The notes: generated by a model not told the origin, from the letters alone. Numbered from the stretch's first letter, positions 42,370 to 44,626 are shown. The stretch: 49,849 nucleotides of DNA from an uncultured Clostridia bacterium (GCA_947383425.1 CANDDE010000023.1:1-49849); one strand, 5' to 3'. Translations and numbers: made by a program.

Positions 42370-43932
42370 CTATTTTATTAAGTCCTTTATTGCCTGTTCA
42401 ATTGCATCATACCGCTTTGACTGAAGCTGTTCTAATAATGCTGCCATAGGATCGGTTTTATTACTTAATACCATTTTTACAATATTTGGGCTAAATCCGC
42501 TTACTAAAGCAACCCCCAAATCATTCTGTCTAATTGGAATTGTACCTGTCTGTGAACCAATATTCCAAAAGACTAGTCGTGGCAACTGATATCCTGCTTT
42601 TTGATAACGTTCTTCAAATATGTGAAACAATTTCTTTGATGGTTTTGTTGGATAATTTCCATCTGCATTACAGCATACACAAGCATCAAATTCCATATCT
42701 GATAAAATTAAAATATTTTGTGGCAATTCTTCCTGTTTCATCTGTTGTTTGATTGCGGTCATTAAAATCAGATCAAAAACTGCTTCAATATTTGTATTTG
42801 CTACTTCATTATGCCGACTTGCAATTATTAATTTTTCTTTTAGACTTACTGCTTTTTTGAAATCCACAATTTGAGGATGTTCACTAAAGGTAAGGTACGT
42901 ATTTTGAAATTGTCCCTTACTTCTTTCTGCAAAATAAATAGCAAGTGAATTGGCTACATCTAAACACCTTACCTGTGTTCCTCCAATAGTAGACAACATA
43001 CTGCCTGAACCATCTGCCACACAGAGCGTATTTCCATCATTTGTCCCATAATCTGGCAATGCTTTCCAAAGTTCTTCCAATGTATTATCTAGTTCTTTTA
43101 ATTGATAAGAATACAATTCCTTTTTATAATTATGTACAATATCATGTGGAAACAAAACTCCTGCATGAATTTTGGTTTCTCCTTTTTTCAAACTTTCTAA
43201 ATAACACATTCTACGTTCTTTATCATTTCTTAAAAATGCATTATTATAAAGTAAATTTGCTCTAGATGGAACCGCTGCATAATTAATTTGTGACCATTCC
43301 CTTTTGCTCATAAAAACTTCTACAACCTTAAGATACTTTCGTAGCTTAGAAAGCATTTTTCTATATTGTCTTTCTGAAATATCCAATTTCATAATTATAA
43401 TATGAGCCAAACGTTTGGTTTCTTTTGAAGAAGCATTTGCACTTGGAAGCCACTTTGCCAGCAAAGAAATTGCTTTTTCCTCACTCATATGCTGTCTATC
43501 TTCTGCTAACTGTCGTTTTATTATCTCAATAATATCATCACAAAGACAACTATCTAACAGACAAAGCAAATTATCCCAACGACTATAAAAAGGAATCCAT
43601 TCTAATACAGCTTTTACAAATTCTGGATTATTTCTGGCAAGGCATTTCATTCCAATTCGAAATAAACGCCGTTCTCCTAACCCCTCTCGTACATCTCCTG
43701 CGAAAAATAACCACTTAACTGCAAGCAACTTATCTTCACAAAAAACTTCTGTAAATTTTTCTTCTATTTTCTGTTCACTTTGATTGCGCAGAGAGGATAC
43801 TTGAAAATTTAAATCCAGTAGTTTTTTCCCTGTTGTCTGATATCCTACTGCACCATTTTCTGTAATACTTATATTCTTATCTGTCTCTAATGTATTCTTT
43901 AAATGTTCCATAAATTCCATACTCTGCATCAA
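42370..43932 (-). CDS. Ro60-like RNA-binding protein (TROVE module + C-terminal vWA domain with MIDAS DGSGSM); Rsr/DUF2828-like
   Basis: 520 aa. Recalled similarity to human Ro60 at three points. (1) SLLAKWLPS vs LLRLSHLKPS. (2) vWA MIDAS VADGSGSM vs AVDVSASM at the equivalent position. (3) C-terminus GVALVSGFSPNIVKMV vs GMLDMCGFDTGALDVI. The N-terminal TENGAVGYQTTG segment is of TROVE/DUF2828 type. Confidence 0.55.
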   Translation of the reverse strand: MMQSMEFMEHLKNTLETDKNISITENGAVGYQTTGKKLLDLNFQVSSLRNQSEQKIEEKFTEVFCEDKLLAVKWLFFAGDVREGLGERRLFRIGMKCLARNNPEFVKAVLEWIPFYSRWDNLLCLLDSCLCDDIIEIIKRQLAEDRQHMSEEKAISLLAKWLPSANASSKETKRLAHIIIMKLDISERQYRKMLSKLRKYLKVVEVFMSKREWSQINYAAVPSRANLLYNNAFLRNDKERRMCYLESLKKGETKIHAGVLFPHDIVHNYKKELYSYQLKELDNTLEELWKALPDYGTNDGNTLCVADGSGSMLSTIGGTQVRCLDVANSLAIYFAERSKGQFQNTYLTFSEHPQIVDFKKAVSLKEKLIIASRHNEVANTNIEAVFDLILMTAIKQQMKQEELPQNILILSDMEFDACVCCNADGNYPTKPSKKLFHIFEERYQKAGYQLPRLVFWNIGSQTGTIPIRQNDLGVALVSGFSPNIVKMVLSNKTDPMAALLEQLQSKRYDAIEQAIKDLIK

Positions 43933-43994
43933 CCCTTTCTAAATCCTATATTTTTTACTTTCCTTTTTCTTTCACAAATCTTTTTAATAACAAT

Positions 43995-44118
43995 GAAGAG
44001 TGGGTGGATTCGAACCACCAAATCTTTACGAAGCCCCTATGTATGTAAATGCTGTTTGAGACTTTTACAAGTCTCTTTCATACTATCTGCTGCCTATCCC
44101 ATTTTGGCTACACTCTTC
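43995..44118 (-). ncRNA. tRNA-like RNA D (non-canonical; 8-bp acceptor-like stem, T-arm GGTGG-TTCGAAT-CCACC, degenerate D-arm; about 80 nt between D and T arms)
   Basis: Manual fold. Termini GAAGAGTG/CACTCTTC pair. Canonical T-loop. Internal hairpin GAGACTT-GTAA-AAGTCTC followed by AAACAGCA. Cannot be folded as a 7-nt-loop anticodon arm. Confidence 0.4.
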
Positions 44119-44120
44119 TC

Positions 44121-44164
44121 TAAAAATAAGAAAAAGACTACAAAATTGTATCTTTCTAGTCTCA
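44121..44164 (-). terminator. terminator/attenuator-like hairpin between tRNA-like RNAs A and D
   Basis: Minus-sense GAGACTA-gaaagatacaattttg-TAGTCTT followed by TTTTCTTATTTTTA. An alternative pairing exists with an upstream GTCTCA element (44157-44164 vs 44204-44211). Confidence 0.4.
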
Positions 44165-44227
44165 TTTTGTTACCCTCTAATCGTGAAAGTTATTTTACGC
44201 TGTTTGAGACTATTCTTATTTTTAAAC

Positions 44228-44337
44228 AGGGACGACAGGAATTGAACCTGTGACACTATGAGGTATTAAAGATTTGCTGTTCGTGTTTTTCTAAACACAT
44301 TTGTTTCATATGCTCTACCCATCTGAGCTACGTCCCT
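44228..44337 (-). ncRNA. tRNA-like RNA A (perfect acceptor, D-arm, variable loop and T-arm, but 44-nt sequence in place of 7-nt anticodon loop)
   Basis: AGGGACG-TA-GCTC-AGATGGGTA-GAGC-A-TATGA[44 nt]TCATA-GTGTC-ACAGG-TTCAATT-CCTGT-CGTCCCT. The insert contains hairpin GTGTTT-AGAA-AAACAC followed by GAACAGCAAAT. Confidence 0.5.
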
Positions 44338-44373
44338 TTTTATTTTTAACTTCTATTATTTACTTACAAAAAT

Positions 44374-44512
44374 AGGGATGACAGGAATTGAACCTGTGAT
44401 CGAATAAACATTAGGATTTGAACCTATTACTCAAAAGAGTCGCCAAAAATTTGCTGTCTGCGTTTTTCTAAACACATCTGTTTATTTGCTTTCCCCACTA
44501 AGCTACATCCCT
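44374..44512 (-). ncRNA. tRNA-like RNA B (canonical arms; 73-nt insertion in anticodon-loop position including a nested second T-arm-like element)
   Basis: AGGGATG-TA-GCTT-AGTGGGGA-AAGC-A-AATAA[73 nt]TTATT-CGATC-ACAGG-TTCAATT-CCTGT-CATCCCT. The insert starts with the same module as RNA A (ATGTGTTTAGAAAAACGCAGACAGCAAAT). It then carries GGCGACTCTTTTGAGTAATAGGTTCAAATCCTAATG. Confidence 0.5.
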
Positions 44513-44530
44513 TTCTATCCTATTTCAAAC

Positions 44531-44626
44531 GGGGACGGTAGGATTCGAACCCACGAATTTACAAAATATTGCTGTCTATGTCTTTCTAGACATAATTCTT
44601 TTGCTCTACCACTAAGCTACGTCCCC
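44531..44626 (-). ncRNA. tRNA-like RNA C (acceptor GGGGACG/CGTCCCC, D-arm, T-arm; 34-nt insert in anticodon region, no variable loop)
   Basis: GGGGACG-TA-GCTT-AGTGGTA-GAGC-AAA-GAATT[34 nt]AATTC-GTGGG-TTCGAAT-CCTAC-CGTCCCC. The insert is hairpin TATGTCT-AGAA-AGACATA followed by GACAGCAATATTTTG. Confidence 0.5.

Follow-up and report, generated by a model that had tools for sequence, protein, structure and literature searches.

Where a gene for a protein reminiscent of Ro60 lies beside a row of tRNA-like sequences, the question arises of whether protein and RNAs belong together, as do Ro60 and the Y RNAs, which form a conserved RNA-surveillance particle (and of which Ro60 is a major human autoantigen). 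Such a locus occupies positions 42,370 to 44,626 of a 49,849-nt stretch of DNA from an uncultured Clostridia bacterium (GCA_947383425.1 CANDDE010000023.1:1-49849), the whole of which is referred to here as the window. The locus includes: (i) a gene of the DUF2828/DUF7788 family on the minus strand, and (ii) four tandem tRNA-like units that occupy the gap upstream of this gene, all on the minus strand. The protein has a Ro60-like fold, the RNAs are tRNA-shaped, covary and carry an element that is specific to their family, and the coupling of the RNAs to the genes of this protein family is tight across genomes and takes two RNA topologies. Most likely, the locus encodes a ribonucleoprotein of the Ro60 type in which both the protein and the RNA are non-canonical, and the four units are probably partner RNAs of the Ro-like protein that act as functional equivalents of Y RNAs, with binding proposed from conservation and gene order. 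The principle of a Ro protein with Y RNAs is known; what is new is the RNA architecture, the signature motif and the link to a very large protein family.

The DUF2828/DUF7788 protein and its Ro60-like fold

The open reading frame (ORF) at 42370-43932 (minus strand) encodes 520 amino acids when counted from a TTG codon, while the ATG at 43920 is the likelier start (516 amino acids) because a 99%-identical database protein (P0001) has this length. The protein consists of N-terminal helical repeats and a C-terminal vWA domain with the metal ion-dependent adhesion site (MIDAS) motif DGSGS. The original prediction of a 520-residue protein with a MIDAS of sequence DGSGSM is borne out, apart from the shorter length now preferred: the motif spans residues 307-312 (DGSGS, 307-311), and D307, S309 and S311 are invariant across 60 diverse homologues in an alignment with a mean column identity of 42%.

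By sequence family, the protein belongs to DUF2828 (PF11443; E 2e-34, 119.6 bits with a cut-off of 29) and DUF7788 (PF25043; E 4.6e-42, 144.2 bits with a cut-off of 27.1), and its close database homologues carry the name 'DUF2828 family protein'. Of the Pfam families proposed for checking the prediction, DUF2828 is thus matched strongly and vWA weakly (vWA_Ro60, E 0.042), but TROVE (PF05731) is unmatched by the window protein at E<=1. The protein also matches PHROG 850, 'RNA-binding protein' (E 3.8e-129). NCBIfam, and a phmmer search of the single protein against PDB sequences, returned nothing useful.

The relationship to Ro60 appears when profiles and structures are compared. A profile of the 60 homologues searched against PDB sequences has Ro60 as its best match (E 0.014), colinear at the MIDAS region. 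An AlphaFold2 model was obtained from a 21-sequence alignment with a predicted local distance difference test (pLDDT) score of 71.3, and the top three Foldseek matches in the PDB are Rsr of Deinococcus radiodurans (5.8e-6) and two human Ro60 entries, all by full-length alignments. The window protein has its parts in the order of the Ro60 fold, with the helical repeats before the vWA domain, and the alignment covers both parts. The predicted Ro60/Rsr architecture therefore stands at the level of the fold but not at that of a TROVE sequence match, and the window protein is a remote Ro60 relative at fold level, outside the TROVE sequence family. Its own family comprises 6,733 clusters at 50% identity (E<=0.001) and is also found in 710 phage records, some of which are annotated 'Ro-like RNA binding protein'; as phage annotators already use such a name, the call of a Ro-like protein is not in itself new.

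tRNA-like units with a hairpin-plus-ACAGCAA module

The four units share a tRNA body and differ in how the insert is accommodated. Unit 1 (97 nt, 44530-44626) has a GGGGACG/CGUCCCC acceptor stem, a D arm and a T arm, with a module in place of the anticodon arm (44563-44597) that consists of an AUGUCU-AGAA-AGACAU hairpin, AG, ACAGCAA and a U-rich tract. Unit 2 (140 nt, 44373-44512), with the acceptor AGGGAUG/CAUCCCU, encloses its module (44445-44481; a hairpin plus GACAGCAA) in an 8-bp stem and has extra hairpins. Unit 3 (111 nt, 44227-44337), with the acceptor AGGGACG/CGUCCCU, has an anticodon-stem-like pairing (UAUGA/UCAUA) around a 44-nt insert that holds the module (44268-44304; GUGUUU-AGAA-AAACAC hairpin, GA, ACAGCAA). 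Unit 4 (124 nt, 43995-44118) has an 8-bp acceptor stem (G-1:C73, as in tRNA-His) and a module with the variant ACAGCAU (44043-44079; GAGACUU-GUAA-AAGUCUC hairpin, AA, ACAGCAU). All units and modules are on the minus strand.

Two models were used for detection: R1, a covariance model from a MAFFT alignment of 46 related units, and R2, a 37-nt model of the insert module alone. R1 scores units 1-4 at 72.3, 73.9, 80.3 and 53.9 bits, compared to 26 bits for the true tRNA-Leu of the window. R2 has exactly four matches in the 49.8-kb window, one per unit (28.3, 29.5, 28.1 and 27.1 bits for units 1-4), with the next best at 15 bits. The Rfam tRNA model (RF00005; gathering score of 29 bits) accepts units 1-3 at 47.6, 50.5 and 51 bits, in matches that need insertions of 38, 74 and 44 nt, respectively, at the anticodon loop; unit 4 is detected by R1 and by ARAGORN with introns allowed (-i), not by the Rfam tRNA model. 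ARAGORN calls all four units in this intron mode and none of the four by default. The acceptor stems are paired at 7/7 positions in every unit, and folding is clearly better than that of shuffled sequences in three units (z of -4.1 for unit 1, and -2.3 and -3.2), with unit 2 at -1.9. The four units are more than chance. They lie upstream of the gene on its strand as had been claimed, tandem and closely spaced, though with spacers of 17, 35 and 108 nt instead of the 18-109 nt first given. The absence of a 7-nt anticodon loop is likewise confirmed, as 0/4 window units have, in the place of the anticodon, a 3-bp stem and a 7-nt loop bearing U33 and R37. An insert (35-75 nt) is present as predicted, but its assignment to the anticodon loop does not hold: relatives that retain an anticodon hairpin have the insert in the anticodon stem, whose 5' strand it interrupts between nt 28 and 29.

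Conservation of the RNAs was assessed in 80 species-level genome loci with homologues of 49-72% identity, from taxa that include Lachnospiraceae, Oscillospiraceae, Christensenellales, Treponema, Bacteroidales, Absconditabacterales and Gastranaerophilaceae. Cultured bacteria with such a locus are Lachnospiraceae bacterium A4 (L080), Dysosmobacter segnis BX15 (L042), Hominicoprocola fusiformis (L041) and Breznakiella homolactica RmG30 (L076). The consensus of the 46 aligned units has a 7-bp acceptor, a 4-bp D stem, a 5-bp T stem and a 7-bp insert hairpin, together with two pairs that match tRNA 27:43 and 28:42 (formed in 44/46 and 41/46 units); where a tRNA has its anticodon, many of the units form a 3-bp stem that carries a 7-nt loop. 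Cells of the alignment pair in 96.8% of cases, compared to 35-48% when the partners are slid by 1-3 columns, compensatory changes occur in 24/28 pairs, including all seven of the insert hairpin, and the observed values are reached by 0/500 shuffles. The module itself follows a common plan of a 6-7-bp hairpin, 1-4 nt, (A/G)CAGCA(A) and then a U-rich tract, in which CAGCAA is almost invariant and mostly has A or G before it (C, G, C, A, A each in 128-136 of 136 units). In the window only the whole module is specific, ACAGCAA alone being no usable marker; even a loose hairpin-plus-motif regular expression has a high background, of 0.35 per kb compared to 1.79 per kb upstream of the gene. Window units 1, 2 and 4 share 79%, 71% and 76% identity, respectively, with the orthologues at the same positions in the related locus L001, whose protein is 72% identical; for unit 4, the identity to the last unit in L001 and in a second related locus, L002, is 76-79%. 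By contrast, the spacers are only 14-49% identical to those of L001/L002; conserved units with diverged spacers are the pattern expected from purifying selection on the RNAs.

The RNAs of the window differ in topology from the YrlA-type Y RNAs that are described with bacterial Ro60 (Rsr). Bacterial Y RNAs tether Rsr to PNPase, and further types of them were expected to be found (Chen et al. 2014, PMC4201824). The likenesses to Rsr systems are several. A Ro60-fold gene has same-strand small RNA gene(s) within a few kb, as in bacterial Ro60 (Rsr)/YrlA loci; a protein-docking helix (inferred as such in the window) is combined with a mimic of the tRNA acceptor, D arm and T arm, as in YrlA-type Y RNAs; and several RNAs occur per locus, some without a tRNA-like domain (cf. 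YrlB), as in Rsr/Y-RNA loci. Unlike Rsr, however, the window protein is from the DUF2828/DUF7788 family, with TROVE unmatched, and unlike YrlA the RNA is permuted, such that its ends lie in a 7-bp acceptor and the docking helix is a closed hairpin at the anticodon arm. The motifs also differ, being GNCGAAN0-1G in YrlA and (A/G)CAGCAA in the window class, with no systematic search made for GNCGAAN0-1G. The YrlA model (RF02553) matches the window at 26.7 and 23.7 bits, compared to a gathering score of 69, and both matches straddle two units, from the 3' half of the first into the 5' half of its neighbour; the suggested searches with RNA models are thus positive for tRNA (units 1-3) but negative for YrlA. 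A YrlA-permuted reading, in which the pairing is between the 3' half of a unit and the 5' half of the following one, was rejected on acceptor pairing, which averages 5.26/7 in this cross-unit register (6, 6 and 5 in the window) and 6.96/7 within units (7, 7, 7 and 7 in the window; perfect in 147/150); the loops closing a cross-unit acceptor would be 17-108 nt. The window RNAs have their termini in a true acceptor stem and their extra stem at the position of the anticodon arm, and the predicted departure from YrlA topology is upheld.

With Yrn1 of D. radiodurans, the window RNAs share the tRNA order of 5'-D-like arm, middle arm and T-like arm-3' (Chen et al. 2014, PMC4201824). The ends of Yrn1, however, form a Ro-binding stem that replaces the acceptor, and its D arm is doubtful, whereas the window RNAs keep a full acceptor and D arm and have their putative docking element in the anticodon arm. 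Canonical tRNAs are matched in the acceptor, D and T arms with the invariant U8, G18G19 and GTTCRA (3/4 units score above the Rfam gathering threshold), and in some relatives the CCA end is encoded and the anticodon loop is intact. By contrast with tRNAs, the window units have no anticodon loop, contain a conserved structured insert and belong to a class in which the anticodon is not conserved between orthologous units. Rfam 15 has no family for RNAs of the window type, and full-text literature searches found no RNA partner described for DUF2828 proteins beyond a suggestion made for the Listeria phage CKA15 (PMC12282133), so that the claim of a distinct and possibly undescribed RNA class is sustained. 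A TROVE-domain gene is reported in 20/29 archaeal tRNA gene clusters (PMC6333295).

The module is also found outside a tRNA body. A probable fifth element in the spacer of units 3 and 4 (44157-44212, minus strand) is, by sequence and fold, a stem-loop of the form UAGUCUCA-A-ACAGCG...UGAGACUA in which the motif is at the 5' side of the loop, a topology of the Y-RNA type; confidence in this element is lower because its motif is the variant ACAGCG. Elements built in the same way occur in the equivalent spacers of L001 (2340-2400) and L002, and both of these loci have clearer tRNA-less copies in the spacer equivalent to that of units 3 and 4 and between the array and the gene. A degenerate remnant (AGAAAGAUACAAUUUUGUAGUC) lies just 3' of the 44157-44212 element, and its counterpart is intact in L001 (2402-2460).

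Variation in the units themselves includes a second T-arm-like hairpin, UAGGUUCAAAUCCUA, in the insert of unit 2 (44412-44426, minus strand) and likewise in unit 2 of L001, which looks like a partial tRNA nested within a tRNA-like RNA. The gene-proximal units form a type of their own (window 43995-44118; L001 2471-2594; L002 1148-1271), with an 8-bp acceptor bearing G-1:C73 and a conserved CAUAGGG at the site of the anticodon hairpin of other units; the CAUAGGGG motif of unit 4 is common to the gene-proximal units of L001, L002, L005, L007 and L063. In L069 (2373-2627) and L071 (2372-2626), a single 255-nt unit has several consecutive hairpin-plus-(A/G)CAGCAA/ACAACAA modules between the D and T arms. 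An encoded CCA end is found in 15/130 long units, and a canonical 7-nt loop with U33 and R37 is kept in 38/126 units of relatives. The first upstream units of 14 Lachnospiraceae loci (L009, L011, L013-L018, L023, L025-L028 and L049) have near-identical tRNA bodies with a varying triplet: C32-U33-NNN-A37-A38 is kept, the triplets are GAU, CUU, UCU, UAU, CCU, GUU and GUC, and positions 34-35 are among the most variable columns of these orthologues. Across all loci, NNU anticodons (for ANN codons) are found in 30 of the 38 intact loops. The variable triplets could reflect diversifying selection or drift.

Coupling to DUF2828 genes and permuted RNAs of phages

The predicted co-occurrence of the RNAs with Ro-like genes is supported by the 80 loci, in which all 206 matches to R1 (206/206) are on the strand of the gene and a unit of at least 60 bits is found in at least 67/80. 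The units of L024, L030, L062, L069 and L071 are weaker or truncated, and no unit is detected in 8/80 loci, of which 5 have under about 510 nt of upstream sequence. In most loci, between 1 and 5 long tRNA-like units are called by ARAGORN in intron mode just upstream of the gene, the copy number ranges from about 1 to 6-7, and the usual distance of the units from the gene on its upstream side is within 1.3 kb; in L072 the elements are downstream of the gene, as they are in the phages FelixO1 and Lolly9. The reverse relationship was examined from a scan of viral contigs with the pattern TAGAGC...ACAGCAA...GGTTCRA, which gave at least 120 loci. Among the matches listed, 71 have at least 2.5 kb of downstream sequence: a DUF2828 homologue is within 2 kb on the same strand in 35/71 and elsewhere in the chunk in 9 further, and the remaining 27/71 have no DUF2828 homologue in the chunk but include only about 9 genuine units by R1. 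Most genuine viral-contig units among these listed matches adjoin a DUF2828 gene, and in many large phages the DUF2828 genes are within or at the edge of tRNA arrays.

Five cultured phages have DUF2828 proteins of the same family (31-38% identity over >93% of the length), and ACAGCAA occurs on the strand of the gene in all five, with 14 copies that are intergenic, either by the gene or between neighbouring tRNA genes. These are found in Tsamsa (Bacillus; three copies and one ACAGCGA, L086 1226-1390 and 2386-2997), VRE9_4 (Enterococcus; one copy, L087 2801-3003), Lolly9 (Mycobacterium; three copies, L208 3941-4321), FelixO1 (Salmonella; four copies, L209 4202-5196) and A511 (Listeria; three copies, L210 2144-2500). 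A fifteenth copy, at 1658 of the Lolly9 locus, is within coding sequence and is probably due to chance. R1 and R2 find no module in these five phages, the motif being seen in its other topology by direct inspection. At every phage copy, a segment of 7-9 nt, which stops 1-3 nt short of the motif, is perfectly complementary to a segment 30-110 nt downstream; therefore, both ends of the phage RNA lie in the stem, as in Y RNAs. The stems covary between copies (AAGACAC/GUGUCUU, UAGGAAUC/GAUUCCUG, UGGACCCC/GGGGUCCA and AGACCGU/ACGGUCU). In Lolly9 (4044-4172) and Tsamsa (1236-1358), the stem surrounds a T arm, a closed acceptor-like hairpin and a D arm, and this enclosed domain is a permuted tRNA-like domain of the YrlA type, with a sub-threshold YrlA match of 37.7 bits in Lolly9.

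The phage stem-loops and the window RNAs have in common a duplex strand that runs 3' through 1-4 nt into ACAGCAA, the same protein family, the strand, the adjacency to the gene and the link with tRNA arrays. In the phage form, however, the strand before the motif pairs downstream, so that the termini are in the stem, the docking stem is open and the acceptor is closed. As the local element is the same and the connectivity is different, the window RNAs are circular permutations of the phage RNAs, and both topologies are found in one locus, i.e., in the window units and the 44157-44212 stem-loop. The phage stem-loops look like an undescribed family of phage Y-like RNAs. A homologous gene of the Listeria phage CKA15 encodes a product that has D. 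radiodurans Rsr as its best HHpred match and is detected in virions. In the 2 kb upstream of this gene, three unannotated early transcripts are very abundant, and the authors suggest that they may be Y RNAs (PMC12282133); these transcripts are placed here relative to the gene. Within a few kb downstream of the DUF2828 genes of A511 (L210 5351-6518), Tsamsa (L086 5031-6272) and Lolly9 (L208 5697-6428) are genes annotated as tRNA splicing ligase (RtcB type), metal-dependent phosphohydrolase or exonuclease, which may indicate a context of RNA repair or RNA decay; none of these neighbours the window copy.

A candidate Ro60-type particle, its alternatives and its setting

For the window, a pathway from locus to particle can be outlined. 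The units are on the strand of the gene and would probably be transcribed with it in one precursor; a terminator scan of the window gave no site on that strand between the units and the gene (one terminator-like site is on the plus strand). Since the 7-bp acceptor, D arm and T arm are kept, excision of the tRNA type is expected, in which RNase P and the tRNA 3'-end machinery would release a stable RNA of ~100-140 nt with tRNA-like ends. The Ro-like protein is proposed to dock at the conserved 6-7-bp helix, the 1-4 nt that follow, the single-stranded (A/G)CAGCA(A) and the U-rich tract. The tRNA-shaped body may then serve as an exposed tether or decoy for a partner that recognizes tRNA, by analogy with Rsr, Y RNA and PNPase. 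We know of no role assigned to the tRNA-like part of bacterial Y RNAs.

Several observations weigh against a Ro60-type particle. The TROVE family is not recovered, and the structural model is only moderate (pLDDT 71, with a template modeling score of about 0.36 to Ro60), because of which a closed ring and RNA-binding surfaces are putative. As the conserved motif of the window class differs from the YrlA motif GNCGAAN0-1G, Ro60-style recognition is not simply transferable to the window RNAs. The A-rich and U-rich flanks of the module pair weakly (3.07 consecutive pairs compared to 2.33 in the shuffled control) and do not covary. The bare heptamer ACAGCAA is common in the window, with 21 copies (18 on the minus strand) compared to 7.9 expected; the surplus beyond units 1-3 is assumed to reflect the codon usage of minus-strand genes and not more modules. 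About 9 real units are in the tRNA arrays of huge phages with no DUF2828 gene in the fetched chunk. Finally, the binding of protein to RNA and the expression of the window RNAs are features that we infer.

Other readings account for part of the same evidence. The units could be stable, autonomous tRNA-like RNAs that act in phage-host conflict as decoys or sensors for tRNA-binding factors (anticodon nucleases, tRNA-modifying enzymes or others), with the Ro-like protein stabilizing them or simply co-regulated. The presence of DUF2828 genes in or at the tRNA arrays of many large phages, the phage-like context of one gut homologue (P0038, below), the canonical loops of some relatives and the variability of positions 34-35 in the Lachnospiraceae orthologues are as such decoys would have them; yet the window units are without any anticodon loop, and the best-conserved part of every unit is the non-tRNA module instead of that loop. 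The module is found, moreover, in stem-loops without a tRNA body beside the gene, which suggests a factor that reads the module; autonomous decoys are considered rather unlikely. A protein that binds its own mRNA leader for autoregulation is a further reading, in which the units are cis-acting, and it draws on their constant strand, their usual position within 1.3 kb upstream, the 62-74 nt that separate the last unit from the start codon in the window and the lack of a terminator-like site between units and gene on the strand of the gene. Intact acceptor and T arms should, however, bring RNase P and 3' processing that detach the units from the mRNA, and a leader role fits poorly with the copy number of about 1 to 6-7, the downstream elements of L072, FelixO1 and Lolly9, the encoded CCA ends in 15/130 long units and the units of huge-phage tRNA arrays where the fetched chunk has no DUF2828 gene; a cis-acting leader is thus judged distinctly unlikely.

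The original prediction had itself offered intron-bearing tRNAs and pseudo-tRNAs as alternatives, and neither fares well. Genuine tRNA genes with a new short intron, removed to give decoding tRNAs and perhaps with assistance from the neighbouring protein, would explain why the Rfam tRNA model and the intron mode of ARAGORN accept the units and why, in about 30% of units elsewhere, an anticodon stem of 5 bp with a normal loop would re-form once the insert is removed, and an RtcB-type 'tRNA splicing ligase' gene is near the A511 homologue. The window units and most units elsewhere, however, have no anticodon loop to restore, and the insert is in the stem (nt 28/29) instead of at 37/38. Its length of 35-75 nt falls far below that of a group I intron, and Rfam intron families give no match at E<=10, with bulge-helix-bulge geometry not examined explicitly. 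To our knowledge, bacteria lack a tRNA splicing endonuclease. The insert helix covaries and its motif is nearly invariant, as in a functional RNA element, and orthologues with one and the same body differ in their anticodon, which a fixed amino-acid identity would not permit; an intron is accordingly very unlikely. Decaying pseudo-tRNAs, the functionless leftover of a phage tRNA array, are suggested by the rejection of the window units by default tRNA finders, by the labelling of neighbouring genes as tRNA pseudogenes in some phage annotations and by the degenerate fragment in the window spacer. Against decay, every helix shows compensatory changes, the units are about as conserved as the protein while the spacers are not, and the architecture recurs in several phyla; the covariation effectively refutes this reading.

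If the units are instead partner RNAs of a Ro-like protein, as preferred here, the Ro/Y-RNA principle extends to a far larger family (the 6,733 clusters noted above), one that abounds in Clostridia of the gut and in phages that are well studied, such as FelixO1 and the A511/P100 group, and so offers tractable systems, with a simple conserved RNA signature available for binding tests. Natural circular permutations of one RNA bear on the evolution of Y RNAs from tRNAs, and attention is drawn to hundreds of 'tRNA-like' genes that go undetected or are given a wrong label by standard tRNA finders. A wider proposal, possible but on the doubtful side, is that DUF2828 proteins and helix-plus-ACAGCAA RNAs are a very large unrecognized branch of Ro60/Y-RNA systems, spread over gut bacteria and large phages of at least 3 host phyla, with two permuted RNA forms (tRNA-type and stem-terminated, the latter partly YrlA-like) of which the tRNA type is a living intermediate from tRNA genes, and with the forms that have hypervariable loops acting as anticodon decoys or sensors against nucleases. 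Were this so, the tRNA-type form would show Y RNAs arising from tRNA genes via a docking hairpin inserted in the anticodon stem, and canonical, hypervariable anticodon loops on a Ro-like platform could have a role in an arms race between phages and anticodon nucleases.

The window module is surrounded by chromosomal metabolic genes. The flanking genes include those for a glutamate-synthase-like oxidoreductase (39052-40884), an aldo/keto reductase with 4Fe-4S domains (41271-42365), an L-rhamnose mutarotase (44639-44956) and a NUDIX protein (46563-47021). Upstream of the rhamnose mutarotase gene are two adjacent ORFs on the minus strand, 45060-46175 (371 amino acids) and 46187-46426 (79 amino acids), with no Pfam match at E<=0.001. 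An ordinary tRNA-Leu (15957-16041) is the only default ARAGORN call in the window. The promoter and terminator scans are uninformative, with 15 promoter-like sites compared to 12.2 expected and the single terminator-like site on the plus strand. The gene order is the same in a near-identical metagenome contig, where a 730-nt gap without a called gene is found upstream of the ORF. The gut homologue P0038 is in a phage-like context, with small unannotated genes on the same strand and an adjoining DNA methylase gene, and its locus has a 1.1-kb gene-free gap that contains four units.

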